Source: Escherichia coli (GTDB taxonomy: Bacteria > Pseudomonadota > Gammaproteobacteria > Enterobacterales > Enterobacteriaceae). From it: 64,000 nucleotides of DNA. Shown here in pieces: positions 11,497 to 22,000 of the stretch. The notes under the pieces were generated by a model. That model saw nothing but the letters and a program-made list of their open reading frames with translations, did no database searches and had not been told where the DNA came from. The DNA lies in assembly GCF_024700885.2 (NCBI RefSeq), contig NZ_CP117016.1, one strand, 5' to 3'. Each line of letters begins with the position of its first letter. Positions within the stretch are counted from its first letter, which is position 1. Position numbers and translations under genes: made by a program.

Positions 11497-11682
11497 TAGT
11501 GAAAATGTATATTGTACGATCATGATTTGATATGTGATCGTAGCAGTAGTAATTAAGAAACCGCTTTTATGTCAAATGTATTGAGCTGATAATTATCAGA
11601 TCGTCAGGAAAGCGTATTTTGATTAACAGGGGATTACTTAACAATCCCCTTTTTATAAAAAATAATTTGCCTGTTTAACTCT

Positions 11683-13500
11683 TCACTCCTGCTGAGACTG
11701 AATTATTCCTAGTGCGTCATAAATCAGTCTTCTGCGTAGTTTATTGTTTTTATCTGCACCATATAACATAAATATATTTTCAACTTTTTCTTCAGGTGTT
11801 CTGAGATAATGGATAAGAAAGGTTATCATTCCAACACAATGGAATAAAGTGAATCCATCAAACAGGCTTATCAGGTTTCCTTTTTTTTCCCGTGTTGTAA
11901 GTATTTTTTCGCGGGTAAGAATATTTGCCAGTTCATGGGGGGCTGATATGTTTCTGCTGTCTATAATGTCATTTATTTTACCAAGGGCTATATCAACTTC
12001 CTGTAATAGGTTATTTATCATAGCTGAGTGAATGTTATTGGTTTCATGTTCCTGACAGTTTATGAACTTATAAATCATTGAGTTATACAGAAATATTACT
12101 CTTCCTAATAAATATGTGTTTGTGTCATTTTGAAGACAGGACTCTGGGTATTCGTGATCCAGTGAAATAAGGTTAATGGACTCGCCCTGATAAGTCATAA
12201 AATAATTGATGTCATTTAATAATGCTCGGATATTTACATGATTTTTACTGAATTTTATTTTAAATGCTATCTTTAGTATAGCAAACGCGGCAATGATAAA
12301 TCCAAAAGGTAATTTCTCATAGTTCAGTTTATTGATGGTGCGATGAACACTTTCAGTCTTTCCTGAAGTAAGTTGTCTCAAACAGTTAACAAATTCTGTA
12401 TAGCCATTTAAGACATAATGGCATGAAGAATCTTTTAAAGAGTTTTCTATGTTTTGTAATGTGACGCCGTTGTTCAATGTATAAATGTAACCGCCAAAGA
12501 CAATGTTTTCAATCTCAACGACACAATTTATTGTTTTTTGTTCAGGATAAAGATAAATATCAGAAATACTATAGTCTCGTATTGCGTCAATGGCATCCCA
12601 CGATAATGCACTGTCAATTTTCAGTGTATAAAATGGTGAGTTCTCATTAGGAAAGTAATATATGTATTTGTTCAGTATATTCATTACATCTATTGGGTTG
12701 GTTAAATATAATAACTGGCATTCATATTCTGAAACTTCTCTTTCGCTTATCAGCATTTTATATAAAGTTGTCAGGGTGCTTGTTAATGAAGTTCGTCTTT
12801 CGAAAGCCAGTAATATAGTGAGATAATAACATGCAACCTGAACTTTATCTAAGTCAGAAATTATTTTTTCCTTGTCTTCATTACTTAAATAAAGCAGATG
12901 TTTACAGGTTTCTTTGCATGTGTTGATAGTTGCGATAAGTTTTGTTTTTCCTGGTGTACTGTTTTTGCGAATATTACGAATGAATTCATATACGCCATCA
13001 AAGATATCTTTGAAATGCGCATTCGCTGGCGTGTATCCGGATAAACATAACTTAACGTAATTTCGCAGATATGTCCTTGCAGCATGATATATATCATCCT
13101 CATTATCCGGTATCTGAGTGAGAAAAGAATGAATATGATAGTAAAATGCCATCTCATTATCCGGGCGATATGTGTTCCTGATGTCGAGTGCGAGAATCAT
13201 TGGTACAATGTCATTAAAATATTTTTGTTTTATTATTTGATGTGTTTTGTCTGTAAAAACAGAATAGTGCATTAGCTTAACATAGAGATCTTCATATCTC
13301 CTAAATATAACTTTTCGTTGTTCTTTACTCAATACTTGTTCTTTATCAATAATGTTTATTAATTCATCAAACATGTCGCCCAGTGAATGTTGATGTGAGG
13401 AAAAATTTTTAATATTTCGGATGTCACGGCTATTCTGGTTTTTAGCCAGAACACCAAAACATGAAAAGACATCATACATTATAGTGATAAAATTATACAT
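11683..13500 (-). CDS. Hypothetical 605-aa protein, AT-rich orphan gene convergent with integrase
   Basis: Uninterrupted 1.8-kb ORF, very AT-rich compared with flanking int and core genes; no motif recognised by eye. Confidence 0.7.
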   Translation of the reverse strand: MYNFITIMYDVFSCFGVLAKNQNSRDIRNIKNFSSHQHSLGDMFDELINIIDKEQVLSKEQRKVIFRRYEDLYVKLMHYSVFTDKTHQIIKQKYFNDIVPMILALDIRNTYRPDNEMAFYYHIHSFLTQIPDNEDDIYHAARTYLRNYVKLCLSGYTPANAHFKDIFDGVYEFIRNIRKNSTPGKTKLIATINTCKETCKHLLYLSNEDKEKIISDLDKVQVACYYLTILLAFERRTSLTSTLTTLYKMLISEREVSEYECQLLYLTNPIDVMNILNKYIYYFPNENSPFYTLKIDSALSWDAIDAIRDYSISDIYLYPEQKTINCVVEIENIVFGGYIYTLNNGVTLQNIENSLKDSSCHYVLNGYTEFVNCLRQLTSGKTESVHRTINKLNYEKLPFGFIIAAFAILKIAFKIKFSKNHVNIRALLNDINYFMTYQGESINLISLDHEYPESCLQNDTNTYLLGRVIFLYNSMIYKFINCQEHETNNIHSAMINNLLQEVDIALGKINDIIDSRNISAPHELANILTREKILTTREKKGNLISLFDGFTLFHCVGMITFLIHYLRTPEEKVENIFMLYGADKNNKLRRRLIYDALGIIQSQQE

Positions 13501-13640
13501 AACATTCTCCTTTTATTGCACTATATAAAATTTTAACATTATATCATTTTGCTTTTCTGTTAACTGGTTTTCATTTTTGAATCAATATTTTCTGAACAGG
13601 GTAATAGTACACGTATTAACAGATTATGTCAGAAGGCCCC

Positions 13641-14402
13641 GGTGATGCCTTCTGACGATAGATTAATGTTGTATTCTATTGGTATCTGGAGACCATATGG
13701 CAACAGTTACAGTATATTCTCCCCGCTGTAATTCCTATAAAGTGTACCGTTATGATCACAGCACCTCAGATCATGAGCGTTTCCAGTGCTAATCCTGCAA
13801 ACGTGTATTTCAACTGAATTACATCTACGAAACCCGAAAACCAGGCATTAAAGAGCAAATTGTTGAAATGGTTCATAACGGAGCCGGGGTTCGCGATAGC
13901 TCCAGAACGCTGAAGGTGGATATCAACACCGTCATTCTCACTTTAAAAAACGCTCACCACGTAAAGTAACCATATCTCCAGCCGCCAGTGTCGATGTGGC
14001 ACTTATCTGTGAACTTGATGAACAATGGAGTTTTGTCGAAAACAAAGCTCGTCAGCAGTGGCACTGGTACGCGTATAAGACCAAAGCTGACGGTGTGCTG
14101 GCTTACACTTTTGGTCCTCGCACTGATGAAACATGCCGTGAGTTGCCGGAATTCCTGAAGCCATTCTCCGCAGGCATGATAACCAGAGACAACCGGAGCA
14201 GTTATACCAGAGAAATGCCACAGGATAAGCATCTTGTCGGCAAGATATTTACCCGGCGCATTGAGCGCAACAATCTGACACTTCGTACTCACATCAAACG
14301 ACCTGCCCGGAAAACGATTTGCTTTTTACGCTCCCTGGAAATTCACGAAAAGCCATTGGTTCATTTATCGAAAACACATGTACTACTGACAGGAGTCATT
14401 AC
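13641..14402 (+). mobile_element. IS1-family insertion sequence, divergent, probably degenerate
   Basis: Left end ggtgatgcc.. resembles the IS1 inverted repeat and right end ..ggagtcattacc resembles IS1 IRR; InsA-like start MATVTVYSPRC..HERF.C is interrupted, and the InsB-like ORF (13996..14433: ELDEQWSFVENKARQQWHWYAYK..FTRRIERNNLTLRTHIKRPARKT) is present. Confidence 0.65.
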
Positions 14403-14599
14403 CAGGGCCTCTTTTGCTGTTTTTTTGCCATGAATGATAATGAGAATCGACAGCGATAAGGGAAAAGTAAAATAACACTAATGCTGTCGTTTTCTATCAT
14501 ATTGATTTTTAATTATTTATTGTCTTTTTTCTCAACCCATTTTTTTACGCAGACAAATTTACCTGGGGAATACAAACTGTAACGACAGTTCACCACACT

Positions 14600-14908
14600 A
14601 TGGGGGATAAAATGCCAGATCAATCCGGACACTGCAGGACTCCTTCACGCATCTTACGGATGCCTGAACTGAGCCAATTGTTAGGTATATCTCGTTCGAC
14701 AATTTACGAAAAAATGAATCCGTTATCGAAATACTACGATGCAACCTTCCCCAGGCCGGTACGTCTTGGTAGTGGTTCTGTGGGCTGGCGTTCATCAGCT
14801 ATTGACGAATGGCTTACTTTACATACTGTACCTGCCAGATCAGCAGTCAAAGGTGTTAATGACGAAGTGAGACATACGCTTTCTTCAGATATGACCATGA
14901 GCAGATAA
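14600..14908 (+). CDS. alpA: AlpA-family phage regulatory / excisionase-like protein
   Basis: RILRMPELSQLLGISRSTIYEKMNP..YDATFPRPVRLGSGSVGWRSSAIDEWL matches the AlpA/MerR-like HTH signature; located downstream of int as in CP4-57-type islands. Confidence 0.8.
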   Translation: MGDKMPDQSGHCRTPSRILRMPELSQLLGISRSTIYEKMNPLSKYYDATFPRPVRLGSGSVGWRSSAIDEWLTLHTVPARSAVKGVNDEVRHTLSSDMTMSR

Positions 14909-15009
14909 GTTTTTGTCATCACGTGATCACCTCAGGAGGAAAAAGAAGCATAAGAACAATTTAGCCAGAAGTTTAATTGATAAACAGAATTTCCAGCATT
15001 CATTGTTGA

Positions 15010-15345
15010 AAGAGCAGCTATTGTCGCTATTGTCGCTATTGTAGCGGTAATTGCTGCTATAACCGAAACGTATTACGAAAAAGGAAGCATTTATGCCTTA
15101 CATCAAACCGGATATGCCGTATTCAGTATATGCATGACCATCAATGATAGGGAAGGCAATAATTAAAGCTCAATACAATAAACAAGTACCTCTGACTCTG
15201 GTTGCAATGTCAGTATTAACAGCGATGTCAATTGCCTGTCAGAATCAGGTTGACGTATGCAGTCCCAGAAATTTACGTGGGGCCGTTAATATTTACACTA
15301 TGGTTCTGGAGAAAGGGAAAAGACCGGGGGAAAGGTATTAGTGAA
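15010..15345. repeat. Partial tandem duplication of the yfjI-like 5' region
   Basis: agcagctattgtcgctattgt..gctgctat at about 15013 recurs at about 15489; the 65-aa ORF 15144..15341 (VPLTLVAMSVLTAMSIACQNQVDVCSPRNLRGAVNIYTMVL) parallels residues ~38-75 of the 483-aa protein (APLAMVATSALTAISIACQNQIDVCRPGNLHGPVNLYSLIL). Confidence 0.7.
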
Positions 15346-15541: not shown

Positions 15542-16993
15542 ATGAAAAGAGAGGCTTTTATGTGCTTACTTGCACCAGAAAATCCTTATCCGATATATGC
15601 ACTACCACCGCTGGTGAGAAATGCAATAATTGAAACTCAAAAAAATACACAGGCACCTTTGGCTATGGTGGCAACATCCGCATTAACAGCGATCTCAATT
15701 GCCTGTCAGAATCAGATTGACGTGTGCAGACCTGGAAATTTACATGGGCCTGTTAATCTTTACTCTCTGATTCTGGCTGATTCCGGTGAAAGGAAAACGA
15801 CCGTGGATAAAGTGTTTATGAAAGCATTTTATCTCAGGGATGAAGCCCTGGCGGATGAATACGCGAAACTGGTTGAGAATTACAGTACAGAAAAGGAAAT
15901 ATGGGAGCAAAAACAAAAAGCGCTGGAATCAAAATTTCATAAAGAGATTCGTGCCGGTAAAGATTACAAGGCAACAGAATCAGAGCTTGAAACGCATCTG
16001 AATAAACCTCCTGTTCCGCCGCAGATACGTCGAACAATTTTTAATGAGACAACGATAGAGGGAATGTTAAAATATTACTCCGATAGCAATCGCTCTTTTG
16101 CTCTTGTATCCAGTGAAGGGGGGGTGATTTTTGACAGCCGGGCCATGAGTAAACTGGGAATTATTAACACTTTGTGGGATGGAGGTTCTCTTTTCATCGA
16201 CAGGAAATCATCTCCCGGAATTAATTTGAAGGAGCCAAGACTGACGATATCGGTGATGATTCAGCCTGATGTTTACCACAAAGGTTTTTGTACGCGAAAA
16301 AAAGAAATTGTGAAAACGTCAGGACATCATGCAAGGTTTTTGATGTGTCAACCAACATCAACGCAGGGGACAAGGATAATAACCGGAGATAATTATTCAT
16401 CACAGTATCAGGATTTGTTTGAAGAGAGGATCAATGAGCTTATTGATGAAAGTCTGGCGATGAGTGGTGAACGACGTTGCCTTCACTTTTCTCCTCAGGC
16501 TGCCAGAATCTGGACGGATTATTACAATGATGTGGAATCGAAGCTGGGGGGATTGGGGCCTTTAAGACATTGCCGGGAATATGCTGCTAAAAATGCAGAG
16601 TATATGGCAAGACTGGCAGGACTTATTTACCATTCGAGCGGTGAAGAGGGGGAGATTTCCCCTTACACTGCAGAAATGGCGAGAGAATTAGCAATATGGT
16701 ACGGTAATGAGTATGTGCGGTTGTCTAATCCGTTAACTTTTGACAACTCTGCCCTGACCGTACCTGTGCGACTCATTCCAGAGGAGCTTGAACTTTTCAA
16801 CTGGATAAAAAGCTATTGTATTGAGAAGGGGATCCTCTGTATGAAAAAAAATGATATTTTACAGCGTGGTCCGAACCGTTTCCGGAAAAAGGATAAAATC
16901 AACTGGTTACTGGATTTACTGTATGAACAAAACAGAGTTGTACCGGTTATTGAGGGAAAAACGTTGTGTGTCGCACCTAACTTTGACCTCTGA
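15542..16993 (+). CDS. YfjI-like DUF3987-family protein (island replication/primase-associated)
   Basis: 483 aa; gene order int-alpA-this-yfjJ-like parallels CP4-57 intA-alpA-yfjI-yfjJ; family assigned from context and memory, not from a search. Confidence 0.6.
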   Translation: MKREAFMCLLAPENPYPIYALPPLVRNAIIETQKNTQAPLAMVATSALTAISIACQNQIDVCRPGNLHGPVNLYSLILADSGERKTTVDKVFMKAFYLRDEALADEYAKLVENYSTEKEIWEQKQKALESKFHKEIRAGKDYKATESELETHLNKPPVPPQIRRTIFNETTIEGMLKYYSDSNRSFALVSSEGGVIFDSRAMSKLGIINTLWDGGSLFIDRKSSPGINLKEPRLTISVMIQPDVYHKGFCTRKKEIVKTSGHHARFLMCQPTSTQGTRIITGDNYSSQYQDLFEERINELIDESLAMSGERRCLHFSPQAARIWTDYYNDVESKLGGLGPLRHCREYAAKNAEYMARLAGLIYHSSGEEGEISPYTAEMARELAIWYGNEYVRLSNPLTFDNSALTVPVRLIPEELELFNWIKSYCIEKGILCMKKNDILQRGPNRFRKKDKINWLLDLLYEQNRVVPVIEGKTLCVAPNFDL

Positions 16994-17813: not shown

Positions 17814-18377
17814 ATGTATAATGCTAATCCCAATTACGAAATGGACTTCATGATTCTGAAAGACGTGAATGAACACATGGAAGGTCTGTTTCAACGTTTT
17901 TCTAAACTGTTACCTTTCAGAATTGATTTTGCCTACAGGAAAGACACGCCCAGTTTTGGTCATTCCTGTAGGCACAGTATGTGTATTGAAATGCACCGCT
18001 TACTTAGTGAAACCCAAACGATGCTGGCGGGATATTACTGGGTAATGGAATATACGTCAAACAAGGGACTTCATATTCATTTTATCGGCTACTTGGATGG
18101 GCAACGTCACAAGAAATTTTATCGGATATCCAGGCAACTGGGAGATATCTGGAGTCGGATCACGGAAGGGGAGGGTTATTTTCACCTGTGCAGTACTAAA
18201 GACAAATACCCGGTGCGTATCGATCACGTGATTCACTATAGTGATAAGTCTGCGGTAGACGGTTTACGTTACGCCCTTAGCTACCTGGCTAAACAGGATC
18301 AGAAAGAACACGGTATTATTCTGGGCCGTAGCAGGCTTCCCGAAAAAAGCAACCGGGGCCGACCACGACATAACTGA
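17814..18377 (+). CDS. YagK/YfjJ-like (inovirus Gp2-type) protein
   Basis: 187 aa; ..YYWVMEYTSNKGLHIHFIGYLDGQ.. resembles the YagK/YfjJ family found after yfjI in P4/CP4-57-type islands. Confidence 0.5.
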   Translation: MYNANPNYEMDFMILKDVNEHMEGLFQRFSKLLPFRIDFAYRKDTPSFGHSCRHSMCIEMHRLLSETQTMLAGYYWVMEYTSNKGLHIHFIGYLDGQRHKKFYRISRQLGDIWSRITEGEGYFHLCSTKDKYPVRIDHVIHYSDKSAVDGLRYALSYLAKQDQKEHGIILGRSRLPEKSNRGRPRHN

Positions 18378-19039
18378 ATTACAGTTGTATTAGGTATTAA
18401 AATTAAGTTTCTGTAAGTTGTTGGGAGGTGCTTGAGTTAATAGGCAGAAGAGGGCGGGGCGCTTTGTCATCAGTGTAGGGGACCCGAATTTCTGCCGTGG
18501 TACCTCAGTGGATCGGATACAGGTAACGAATATGGTTCATAAATCTGACAGTGATGAATTAGCTGCACTGAGGGCAAACATAACTTGAAGCTTATGGGAT
18601 TGAATGGCGACGTAAACCGCAGAGTCCTGTGCAGTGCGTTTCCGTATTATCCACGGATGAGAAAGTTGCGTTATTTTGTCGACTGTTTCGCGGGCGTGAT
18701 GATGTATGGGCCCTTCGATGGGAAAGCAAAACCAGCGGCAAATCAGGGTACTTGCGGGCCTGTGCTAACGAATGGCAGCCGGGAATAGCGGTAAACTCCG
18801 GATAAAATGTGGGGACTGCGCTCACCGTCAGTTGATCCCTGTATCTGATCTCATCATCTACCACTACACGGTTTAACGGGGCCGCGTCATCTCGGCGTTG
18901 CCCGATAAATTCTTTTCTACGTATAATAACCAGAATGAACGTGTAAAACACCATAGTATTCAGAACTATAAACATCGAAACCTGCCATATTGACTAGAAT
19001 AAATGACCTTATTTTTACTGAAATTTAAGGAGAACACCG

Positions 19040-22000
19040 TTGGAAGTAGAAATGTGGGATGGTGGCTTACAAGAACAGGAAGTATTGGCTATCGAGAAAA
19101 TAAAAGCTGCTTTTTCAGTCAACGTATCTAAGCCTGACAAGCCTTTCCGTAGCGGTTCAATTAGTGAGCAGCTAAAAAGCTATGGTTTTATCGGCAATGA
19201 AATGTTCCCTTGGAAAGGTTATGCAGGTTTTCGATTTGTTGAGGCAAAAAAAGAGGGGGAATTCGATTTAGTTATTGTAACACACTGCAACGTGATCATT
19301 GTTGAACTGAAAGACTGGAACCATCAGCCTGTAACCGCACGCGGAGATACTTGGTTTAAAGGTGATAAGAACATGGGGCGCTCGCCAGTAAGCGTGACTC
19401 GTAGCAAAAAATTCATGCTGGACAAAAAACTCAAGCGTCTGGTAGACCGTTTTACGAACAAAGGCTATATCCCGATTGTTCATTTTTTTGTTGTGATGAC
19501 CGGCAATGCAGATTTCAGCGCGCTGCCGGAGGAACAACGGCGCCATACGATCTCGTTAAAAGATTTCCTGAAGTTTGCCGATCGCGGGAGCTTCAATAAC
19601 TATTTCAAACCGCACCCAGCTACCAAGGTTCTTAACAAGGATTTCCATCTTTTCGATGATTTGTTCCTAGGGCCTCAGACGGCACCAAAAGCCTTGAGAG
19701 TTAATGGCTATGAAGCTAATGATATGATTTTCGAACATCCTAAAAAGGTGTATCGAGAATATCTGGCAAAATCTGAGATATCAACGAACAGCGAAGCGCT
19801 ACTCAGAGTATGGAATTTTAGAAATATAACGGGAACGAAAGCGAATACCCCGGAAGGACGAGCTCAGATTGTTTCACGTGAGCGCGAAGTGTTACAGCAC
19901 ATCAATCACCAGAATCGTGACCTGTATAACCACTGTCTCAGGTCTTTGACGAGTTTTCAGAAAGACGAGGTGACGGCCGAGTATAGCGAAGTCTACGAAG
20001 TTCCGCCGGGTCATGTCCGGTTTAATGAGTTTATCGGAAAATATGGTAAGAACTTTTCTGATATGGACCGCTTGAATGTGGTGAAACTGCTCATTGCAAA
20101 GTTTAGTGATCTCCATGAGATGAAAATTGCGCACAGGGATGTCGCCGATCACAGTCTGTGGATTTCACCTTCAAAAGAAGTTGCTCTTTCGAACTTTATT
20201 TCGGCTTACCACCAGCCAGCCGGAACGGTTGGCGATTACCGTAAGCTTTTATCCGTAGGTGCAGTCCACGTAAAAGACATGCTTGATAAGGGCGAGCTTA
20301 CGCCTTTTCAGCAAGATGTTCATACTCTGGGCCTTGTCGCCTGGCACTTATTTAGCGGTATGCGCATGTCGCCAAAGAGTCTGGAGAAAGTACAGGACAA
20401 CATGCTAAACAGCCAGCACTGGTATTCATCTGTATTACGGGATGCCGTTGCCGCAAAATTCACTTCTGCAACAGAATTCTTTGATGCCCTGAAACAAGCC
20501 GAACCTGCTGGCAAGGATATTCCAACATTTGATGATACTGAGCTTGACCCTTACCGACATGCTATCAATCACGCTCGTCAATACCCGGAAGACGATGGCT
20601 TTCAGTTTCAGGTCGAAACAGTCGACAAAGAAGTCTATATCTCGAAAGGAAGGCTCGTGAAGGCTTGGCTGAATGTTGGGGGACAGGGATACGATCCGTC
20701 AATTAATTTCCAGGTTCTGAAGTTTTTAAAGCAGGTTGAGCGGCTTTCTTCAGTTAAAACAACGTATCTACCTCAAATTCGTGAATTCGGTATCGCATCA
20801 AAATCATCAAGCCTATATATGGTCACGGATCAGGTACAGGGAGAAACCTGGGATAAAATAGCGGTCCCCGATGATGAAAAAATCGACCTCATTGGTAAGT
20901 TTGTCGCCGCCGTTGAGCACTTACATGGTCTGGGTGTTTCTCACGGGGACATCCACCCTGGCAATGTGATATTTGAGACACAGAGCCGTTTGCTTTTTCT
21001 CATCGATATCCCCGATTTTTCACCGTCCGGTGACGAACCTAAAAATCACAGTTACAGCCCTGAATACATTGATAATTGTACTTCTTTTGAACGTGACAAC
21101 TATGCAGTGATGAAGATGTCCTGCGAGTTGCTAGGCATGTCATGGGGGCTGGAATCAGACATTTATCCGACAATCGCGAATGCTATCCGAGCAGAGCTGG
21201 AAGATCCGGTTTTTGGGTTTAAGGATTTAGGCCGCTTTAAAAAAGCGATAGATAGTAATGACCTGGTGCCAGAACAAGACCTGATAGAGATTACTGCAGG
21301 AAATGCCGATGAAATAATCTCTATTCTGCCTGATAACGGGCATCTGTATGTCAAAGTTAAGTCAAATCCTAAAGCGCCAGCTGAAGTAAATGTGACTTTC
21401 TCTGGGATTGGTGGCAGTTTTACTGCGGTGTTCAACAAAGATCAGAAGACGCTGGTTCATGGCTTCAGGCCACGGGCTCGCGTCACAATTCGTAAGCAAG
21501 ATATTGATGAAAGCCAGTTCGAAATTGATACTGGTATCAAGATTATTCCCGGCAGTCCGCAGGATCTGTCGGCGTTGACAGTATTGCTTAATGAAGAAGA
21601 ATCTTTTGCGCGGGCAATCGAGTTGATTGCCGCAACTGAAGATGTTCAGGTACAAGAGCCACTTACGCTTCAGCTAAAAGATACCTTTGCAAGGCTTGAT
21701 AAGCAGACGCTTGAACCTTCTTTAAGAGAAGTGCTGGAAATCCCAACAGTGAAACTGTGGCGCGCCATTCTGGATACTGAAACAGAATCTTATCCAAACA
21801 TTGAAATCAGCGGTGAAGTGGTCCCGGTTGCAGATGCTCATGGAGAGCTTCTTCTCCCTTACTCTGCTGATGTTGATCCACTCGGTGCTTTCAGAAGTAG
21901 TGATGAAGTCGAAGCCTTACAGGTCGATCAGGAAGGTGTTGAGCGATTTATTGGTGAAGTGTCACTTAAGAAGTCAGAGCTCAAAGAGATTCGTCTTGTC

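Follow-up and report, generated by a model that had tools for sequence, protein, structure and literature searches.

The subject of this report is a gene, here called X, in a 64-kb stretch of Escherichia coli DNA (NCBI RefSeq assembly GCF_024700885.2, contig NZ_CP117016.1); the whole stretch is referred to as the window, and coordinates are counted from its first nucleotide. X occupies 11683–13500 on the minus strand and encodes a protein of 605 amino acids (aa). It is a functional, translated and selected protein-coding gene, its product belongs to a new, uncharacterized all-α family, and it is the lineage-specific, fixed divergent partner of alpA-yfjI-yfjJ in integrative islands of the Enterobacterales. 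By analogy with known island regulators, X is viewed here as a variable sensor, or "immunity", gene that may gate the AlpA excision and replication program, a reading that is favored but held with less than even confidence.

The partnership with alpA emerges from the loci of relatives. In all nine loci of homologues with 22–32% identity, X is divergent from alpA at a distance of 59–205 bp, and alpA is followed by a DUF3987 gene (yfjI) and usually by a gene of the YagK/YfjJ type. A scan of one genome per species with AlpA-motif seeds gave 60 further loci, to which a hidden Markov model (HMM) of the X family was applied. It matched 12 of these, in 11 named Enterobacterales and one metagenome-assembled genome (MAG) labelled Bacillota, and X was always in the slot divergent from alpA, although this 12/12 result is partly circular, the seed motifs having come from X-linked AlpAs. 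Four of the 12 copies were fragmented. The other 48 AlpA-seeded loci, from Pseudomonas, Acinetobacter, Burkholderia, Neisseria and others, were without X, and nine of them have alpA-DUF3987. Taken together, all 21 relatives' loci have X divergent from alpA-DUF3987(yfjI)-yfjJ, with a conserved intergenic stretch of about 100 bp between them. The MAG locus (L031; JAEWTL010000133.1, a 3.2-kb contig of a "Bacillota bacterium") has an enterobacterial-type X-alpA-DUF3987 arrangement with an AlpA 66% identical to that of the window, and the contig is probably mis-binned or contaminating rather than an occurrence in Firmicutes.

An earlier sequence-only reading had described X as single-gene cargo at an integrase-proximal position. 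The gene is tied to alpA and not to int in both the nine and the 12 loci. The integrase gene is not adjacent to X in L004, L008, L009, L013, L015 and L017; the order in L004 is int-CHAT-yfjJ-yfjI-alpA<>X and in L017 int-DUF4062-Abi_alpha-Abi_C-yfjJ-yfjI-alpA<>X, and the X-alpA-yfjI-yfjJ unit can face either way with respect to int, one way in the layout of the window and of K-12 and the other in L013, L015 and L017. Unlike the cargo of a hotspot, one family fills the slot in the 9/9 and 12/12 loci, and the slot is set by alpA, not by int, with the caveat that the cryptic element CP4-57 of K-12 has the unrelated yfjH there, so that in the wider superfamily of islands the content of the slot does vary. 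Nine alpA-DUF3987 loci outside the Enterobacterales and K-12 CP4-57 work without X, which is therefore not a mechanistic necessity for every alpA module; nor is it integrase-proximal cargo.

X also stands apart from its module in its rate of divergence. Between the Morganella loci L009 and L017, AlpA is 95%, DUF3987 92% and YfjJ 92% identical, and X 34%; DNA identity is 90–98% from yfjJ to the start of alpA and then falls to about 50% exactly at the alpA/X intergenic region. The same pattern is seen in L003, L004 and L015, with a backbone 66–79% and an X 33–38% identical. X identity is rank-correlated with backbone identity (rho 0.65–0.74, from pairs that are not independent). X alleles have been exchanged or diversified as cassettes on a conserved backbone, with the breakpoint in a shared control region. 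E. coli alone holds at least three deep alleles with about 27–30% mutual identity: the window type (1036 genomes), the L006 type (170) and the L013 type (47). The L006 type sits at the same chromosomal site as the window type, beside an integrase (Arm-DNA-bind_3, PF13356; Phage_int_M, PF22022; Phage_integrase, PF00589) that is 96% identical to that of the window.

The control region consists of the roughly 100 bp between alpA and X, and different genera share its sequence though their X proteins are only about 25–35% identical. It has three parts: a promoter-like −10 (GATACT or CAGTAT); a dyad over the X promoter (such as CTGCCA-N7-TGGCAG or TCTCA-N7-TGAGA), 64% complementary across 16 sequences versus 14–35% in shifted registers; and a short conserved leader, GTCCCCGTAAAAAAACGGAAACCAACCGGAGG, with the Shine-Dalgarno sequence of X at its end.

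In the window this arrangement has been broken. The X-alpA spacing is 1,111 bp, compared to about 100 bp in relatives. A relic of the canonical divergent control region remains attached to alpA (14537–14611, minus strand; alignable with relatives to ...GTCTGCGTAAAAAAATGG), and the alpA-proximal 95 nt can be aligned to ...CGTAAAAAAATGG (14537–14611), with a break about 25 nt before the expected start of X. Between this relic and the start of X come, in this order, AT-rich filler (about 130 bp), a degenerate IS1-like copy (about 763 bp; 13641–14403, ends approximate) and a further 140 bp or so. The insertion sequence (IS) copy is a pseudogene in RefSeq ("IS1 family transposase, frameshifted; internal stop"), an IS1-type terminal repeat, GGTAATGACTCC, can be read at it, and it is the degenerate IS1-like element that had been proposed, rightly, on the far (5′) side of X. 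The window X has lost the canonical promoter and runs behind a different AT-rich promoter-like sequence. This predicted region, found by consensus scan at 13520–13547 (minus strand), has an extended −10 TGaTATAAT (13546–13538) and an overlapping ATGATA-16-TATAGT; it is confined to this E. coli lineage and is non-homologous to the canonical family promoter. A Shine-Dalgarno sequence, AAGGAG, can be read at 13507–13512 (minus strand), 6 nt 5′ of the ATG.

The separation of X from alpA looks old, with X kept since, because the same IS1 scar is present in each of the other window-type E. coli loci inspected (WCHEC020031, MLI114, ABU 83972 and Sakai). E. coli alleles that share the scar differ by a synonymous divergence (dS) of about 0.2. 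In O157 Sakai an identical copy of X, ECs_1300, is the second gene of the element SpLE1, in the order int (ECs1299), X (ECs1300), IS1 pseudogene (ECs1301), alpA (ECs1302), yfjI (ECs1303), yfjJ-like gene (ECs1304) and the IS-excision enhancer gene IEE (ECs1305).

The open reading frame (ORF) itself was recovered intact, with an ATG start, exactly where the sequence-only reading had put a single gene for 605 aa. It is identical to the RefSeq coding sequence, and the protein to WP_042002566.1 ("hypothetical protein"). The chance of 605 open codons at the composition of X is about 1e-21 by our own arithmetic, about 7.6% of random codons being stops. Peptides of X that match residues 201–212 and 279–294 were detected in enterohemorrhagic E. 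coli (EHEC) (PMC3681748). X is translated without induction, and the absence of transcription that had been named beforehand as telling against the sequence-only reading is not what the EHEC peptides indicate (PMC3681748).

The low GC content that had been noted for X is borne out by calculation: by gene it is 0.324 for X, 0.455 for alpA, 0.424 for yfjI and 0.440 for yfjJ, that is, 0.324 versus 0.42–0.50 in the neighbors, and by position it is 0.31–0.34 over 11501–13500, 0.46–0.50 in the integrase and 0.40–0.45 in the downstream genes beyond the IS1 remnant. The sequence-only reading took this as a mark of recent horizontal acquisition. The island has indeed been acquired horizontally, as the identical copy in SpLE1 indicates, but low GC is no sign of recency, because AT-richness is a trait of the family and the IS1-scarred alleles of E. 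coli have diverged as described above. Each family member is the most AT-rich gene of its own module, about 4–13 points under the flanking genes, in hosts of different GC content. Between 11450 and 14700, both strands taken together, there are 23 sigma-70-like hexamer pairs versus 14.1 ± 3.4 in shuffled sequences, most of them inside X. A surplus of spurious intragenic promoters is typical of DNA targeted by H-NS.

X is monocistronic. Between the convergent stops of int and X a terminator scan found a GC-rich hairpin, AGGGGATT-loop-AATCCCCT, at 11628–11650, which is probably a bidirectional terminator, a prediction made because it has a T-run on the plus strand and an A-run on the other side. 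Together the predicted promoter, the hairpin terminator and the deviant GC give X the features of an autonomous unit of the kind seen in phage morons.

X was found in 1036 of 5426 complete E. coli genomes, about one in five. Carriers nearly always have one copy, on the chromosome, and identity reaches 99% or more in 1010 records. Carriers include O157:H7, O111, O103 and the B2 strain ABU 83972. The full-length frame is retained in about 97% of some 1,040 E. coli records, and one cluster of 605-aa proteins holds 8,897 sequences. Against a 6%-diverged E. coli allele (L023), X has dS 0.196, nonsynonymous divergence (dN) 0.038 and dN/dS 0.19, which is comparable to yfjI (0.23) and yfjJ (0.15); int and alpA stand at 0.05 and 0.06. 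By region, the ratio is 0.09 in codons 1–150, 0.31–0.49 in codons 151–360 and 0.14 in codons 361–539. A DNA alignment of the window with L021 and L023 revealed a homopolymer tract, A8GG, within X at 11879–11888 (minus strand; codons ~538–541), where deletions of 1 nt give shortened alleles of 542–546 aa (P0004–P0021) in a minority of E. coli. These deletions are independent between lineages, and either simple decay or slipped-strand on/off switching could explain them.

The sequence-only reading had called X an orphan, which it is not. Although a word-indexed protein search with the sequence and with a profile gave nothing beyond E. coli alleles of at least 91% identity, an exhaustive HMMER search of 1.84 billion representative proteins gave 34 matches, among them about 14 full-length relatives of 568–663 aa with 24–35% identity. 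Relatives are encoded in islands of Salmonella, Shigella, Citrobacter, Enterobacter, Providencia, Morganella and Edwardsiella. The earlier statement that the protein has no recognizable motif holds: PADLOC, NCBIfam, PHROGs, Pfam and the sequences of the PDB are without a significant match. Searches of Pfam-A, NCBIfam 20 and PHROGs v4 with X and with every member of a 15-sequence alignment (A1) gave nothing above chance, and the PDB gave no match either by sequence or by family profile. Among the 5027 models (to 2023) of PADLOC-DB v2.0, X matched no family at E ≤ 1 and ten further family members matched none at E ≤ 0.1; as a positive control, the neighboring MkoA and MkoB were recovered at E = 0 and 1.9e-151. 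An Rfam scan of 9800–15200 gave nothing associated with X. The family has no record in 50,697 phage genomes. A phage or plasmid origin was considered and rejected, there being no phage records and the four "plasmid" matches being megabase-size or island-bearing records.

The AlphaFold2 model of X, built from the 15 aligned sequences of A1, has 29 helices and no sheets (predicted local distance difference test, pLDDT, 83.6; predicted TM-score, pTM, 0.83). Foldseek against AFDB50 returned uncharacterized proteins only, from Leclercia, Pantoea, Hafnia, Shigella, Salmonella, Providencia, Edwardsiella and Proteus, with remote matches in Aeromonas, Burkholderia and Tolumonas (13–18% identity, TM-score 0.6–0.75); among solved, viral (BFVD) and annotated structures the model has no neighbor. 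Across 23 family members, residues 1–150, 390–480 and 541–570 are conserved and residues ~150–360 are hypervariable. E70, G400 and N473 are invariant, and H36, Q37, D52, R62, Y69, D106, Y120, H122, K416, Y472 and K508 nearly so. Inspection of X for a sequence-specific DNA-binding domain (helix-turn-helix, HTH, or similar), for a domain of the LexA/cI type and for an effector-type module (nuclease, NTPase, TIR, SIR2, protease or a convincing transmembrane segment) found none of these. The Sakai annotation (ECs_1300) and some UniProt entries label the protein as integral membrane, which hydropathy, the alignment and the model do not support: the best 19-residue Kyte-Doolittle window scores 2.04 at residues 397–415, several homologues have a charged R, D or K there, as in the LPYGYLSRAFGDLYLALKIKL of homologue P0029, and in the model this segment is packed, at pLDDT 93–95, in a soluble-looking helical bundle.

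One branch of the family is represented by P0051 (866 aa, L018 2467–5067), in which a degenerate IS481-type HTH/transposase module (NCBIfam E 2.5e-11), an HTH with a decayed DDE core, is fused in frame at the N-terminus; in L018 this longer gene has kept its divergent position beside alpA. Structural relatives of X in AFDB include an E. coli "HTH domain-containing" protein of 930 aa (A0A3L0W2L1). The P0051 fusion hints that X acts on or near DNA, but it could be an accidental IS fusion at an IS-prone spot. The alpA-X intergenic region is a repeated target of IS elements, IS481-type in the P0051 branch and IS1 in the window.

How a variable sensor of this kind might work can be outlined from the pattern of conservation. 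The conserved N- and C-terminal helical domains would be a constant output, for example by binding AlpA, YfjI or the control region, and the fast-evolving center (~150–360) would recognize one particular foreign trigger, which might be a phage (helper or invader) or a competing element; recognition of the trigger would then gate AlpA-driven excision and replication. In the window the pair is split: an insertion containing IS1 has uncoupled X from alpA and left X on its own predicted AT-rich promoter.

A close parallel is with the Stl master repressors of the staphylococcal pathogenicity islands (SaPIs). There stl is divergent from str-xis-pri-rep, an operon of a small regulator and excisionase followed by primase and replication-initiator genes. 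Stl is extremely divergent between otherwise similar SaPIs, and its variable part recognizes specific phage proteins. X is likewise divergent from a regulator/excisionase and replication operon and is likewise hypervariable. As with repressors of the Stl/cI type, it is transcribed divergently across a shared control region, which is 59–205 bp long in relatives and interrupted by IS1 in the window. The allele divergence, the sharp DNA break and the hypervariable center together suggest, by analogy, a recognition logic like that of Stl. The differences are that the hosts of X are Gram-negative, that its fold is new and has no recognizable DNA-binding domain, and that a repressor role for it is putative.

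In Pseudomonas aeruginosa, the AlpA-binding element lies between the −35 and −10 of target promoters (PMC7969949). AlpA-family regulators there are restrained by a dedicated partner, the AlpR repressor or YgfB (PMC7969949; PMC9998450), and the latter, which does not bind DNA, is reported to oppose AlpA function and not to work through operator binding (PMC9998450). X has no sequence or fold relationship to either of these partners, and the window AlpA belongs to an excision/replication module, not to a lysis cassette. The element CP4-57 of K-12 (intA-yfjH-alpA-yfjI-yfjJ) offers a parallel in layout: yfjH occupies the slot of X, convergent with a P4-type integrase and divergent from alpA at 43 bp, is AT-rich (36.8% GC) and uncharacterized, and is followed by yfjI, 41% identical in protein sequence to that of the window, and yfjJ. 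YfjH, at 318 aa, has half the size of X, and homology between the two was rejected after hhalign comparison of the X family profile with YfjH (probability 0.06%, E 0.77).

Several observations weigh against the sensor reading. Known repressors of islands or phages are less than half as large as X with its 600 aa, and the nine alpA-DUF3987 modules outside the Enterobacterales, like K-12 CP4-57, lack it. In the window X is apart from alpA yet conserved, which fits a trans-acting regulator and equally an autonomous function. The 12/12 result of the species scan is partly circular, as described above, and the link of X to excision, replication or phage is one that we infer from sequence. It is possible, at odds of roughly one in three or somewhat less and so nearly as likely, that X instead acts by itself against phages, as an exclusion or abortive-infection protein from a new family and a quasi-permanent "moron" of the island; this is the idea of the sequence-only reading without its integrase-proximal cargo. 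Its variable center would then sense a phage component, and its conserved domains would execute a toxic or blocking activity; the two readings share the fast-evolving recognition domain, and it is the output that differs. Hendrix-type morons are autonomous transcription units with a composition unlike that of their neighbors, and P2/P4-like and other integrative elements reportedly carry defense-hotspot cargo, as described by Rousset et al. in 2022. X resembles both: it is AT-rich and monocistronic, has a predicted promoter and terminator of its own, and lies between modules of an element with bona fide defense systems. Islands carry defense, the window has a type I Mokosh system, and the modules of relatives are flanked by genes for CHAT, type I restriction-modification and SMC-like ATPase proteins (L004), by Abi_alpha, Abi_C and DUF4062 (L017) and by SLATT, GAP1 and DO-GTPase (L009). 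Hypervariability relative to the neighbors, translation without induction and purifying selection in E. coli despite uncoupling from alpA by IS1 are all consistent with exclusion. On the other side, true hotspots turn over many unrelated families, whereas the slot of X holds one family in 21/21 loci and shares its promoter region with alpA. The PADLOC models, which include guilt-by-association PDC candidates, gave zero matches among 5027, and none of the effector-type modules named above is present in X; the absence of the family from the 50,697 phage records and from BFVD is neutral and lends no support. The island does carry defense cargo, Mokosh. The defense or abortive-infection role suggested for X from sequence alone may hold, but no PADLOC model matches any of 11 family members and no effector domain is detectable.

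Two further explanations are less probable, and the rest of the probability belongs to readings outside these four. X might be an output controlled by AlpA, which, as a Q-like antiterminator or activator, would load at the X-promoter dyad on induction, and X would then, while the island excises or transfers, act on the host or on the DNA of the island, perhaps helping in host takeover or serving as an accessory to replication or transfer. This is unlikely, although X strictly adjoins alpA, a short conserved leader (GTCCCCGTAAAAAAACGGAAACCAACCGGAGG) precedes it, and the canonical X promoter has the conserved dyad in its −35/−10 spacer, the same relative position at which P. aeruginosa AlpA binds (PMC7969949). 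The leader hairpin has only about 4–5 bp and no U-tract, so that there is no obvious terminator to bypass; enterobacterial AlpA is distant from the P. aeruginosa protein; the window X, without the canonical promoter, is nevertheless translated and conserved; and hypervariability would be unexpected in a housekeeping accessory of replication or transfer. Very improbable is an X without a protein function of its own, either a decaying remnant or an AT-rich block that binds H-NS and silences the alpA operon. In its favor, every X and the unrelated K-12 yfjH is the most AT-rich gene of its module, promoter-like hexamers are in surplus (23 versus 14.1 ± 3.4 expected), four of the 12 copies in the species genomes are in fragments, and frameshifts at the A8 tract affect a few percent of E. 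coli alleles. Selection and proteomics together largely refute this explanation: the dN/dS of X is 0.19 and falls to 0.09 in its N-terminal domain, the full-length frame persists in about 97% of the E. coli records and in the 8,897-sequence cluster, and peptides were detected. Moreover, the AlphaFold2 fold is confident from only 15 sequences, and the polar residues E70, N473, H36, Q37, D52, Y69, D106, Y120 and K508 persist at about 25% identity.

The remaining genes of the locus in the window are arranged as follows. The P4-type tyrosine integrase gene (10294–11496, plus strand; ORF and RefSeq annotation) is convergent with X, as had been read from the sequence. On the other side of X, alpA (14612–14908, plus strand) encodes a winged-helix regulator or excisionase-like protein of the Phage_AlpA type, in RefSeq a "helix-turn-helix transcriptional regulator", which is 52–80% identical to the PF05930 AlpA proteins that adjoin X homologues. 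The second gene of the module, yfjI (15560–16993, plus strand), is a "YfjI family protein" in RefSeq with a DUF3987 HMM match. Just 5′ of it a 65-aa ORF (15144–15341) duplicates the YfjI/DUF3987 N-terminus and looks like a recombination or duplication scar. The window yfjI is nearer to that of K-12 CP4-57 (41%) than to the yfjI beside other X alleles (21–29%), which suggests a mosaic module. The third gene, a yfjJ/yagK-like "inovirus-type Gp2" gene, is at 17814–18377 (plus strand; RefSeq annotation, HMM match 1e-43).

Beyond the module the recognizable defense cargo of the island is a complete type I Mokosh system, MkoA at 19052–24010 and MkoB at 24007–25443 (both plus strand; PADLOC E = 0, full-length, and 1.9e-151), which RefSeq names "AAA domain-containing protein" (1652 aa) and "hypothetical protein" (478 aa). 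An archaeo-eukaryotic primase (AEP)/helicase gene at ~18532–18867 ("TOTE conflict system AEP"; the IEE of Sakai, ECs1305) is a frameshifted N-terminal fragment in the window and is intact (783–787 aa) in L023 and Sakai. At ~25900–30600, by transfer from the RefSeq record MLI114, there are a ShET2-type enterotoxin gene, a malY/patB-like gene and malX, the pathogenicity island (PAI) "PAI marker" of extraintestinal pathogenic E. coli (ExPEC). The X-alpA module is the left end of a composite pathogenicity and defense island, because the island continues with these last three genes.

At the left island junction, 9885–10147 contains two tandem copies resembling tRNA-linked repeats, and overlapping ORFs encode one peptide twice; Rfam RtT scores 42.3 bits at 9940–10077 (minus strand), just under the gathering score of 45. 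ARAGORN found no tRNA across the 64-kb window, though the integrase is P4-type. At 8601–10294, phoH is followed directly by a DUF2726 gene (9163–9849) and the integrase gene. Many other E. coli that carry this island have pgaDCBA, dgcT, an IS3 and ycdU in the interval from phoH to int, and only 148 genomes share the junction of the window; the difference on the phoH side is a deletion or an alternative junction beside the island. A second AT-rich stretch (GC 0.32–0.39), at ~3000–3900 between a gene for a 447-aa hypothetical protein and efeU, has no gene annotated in the matching RefSeq record.

The control of stability, excision and transfer of islands with a P4-type integrase and AlpA is poorly understood, and X is an obvious candidate for a part in it. 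That X founds a new-fold family of hypervariable sensors, either a Gram-negative counterpart of Stl that chooses the inducing phage or stress or a new single-gene phage-exclusion system, is conceivable but doubtful. As a counterpart of Stl it would control AlpA-driven excision and replication of pathogenicity and defense islands of the Enterobacterales, among them SpLE1/OI-43/48 in O157:H7 and, in the CFT073/ABU83972 lineage, the serX island. SpLE1 of O157:H7 is the tellurite/urease island, and B2 urinary strains are among the carriers. An AT-rich gene beside an integrase is by itself no proof of defense cargo. If X gates induction, it would explain the specificity between islands and phages in Gram-negative bacteria; if it is a defense protein, it would bring a new fold and mechanism. 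Either way, the X family merits a name and a Pfam or DefenseFinder model.

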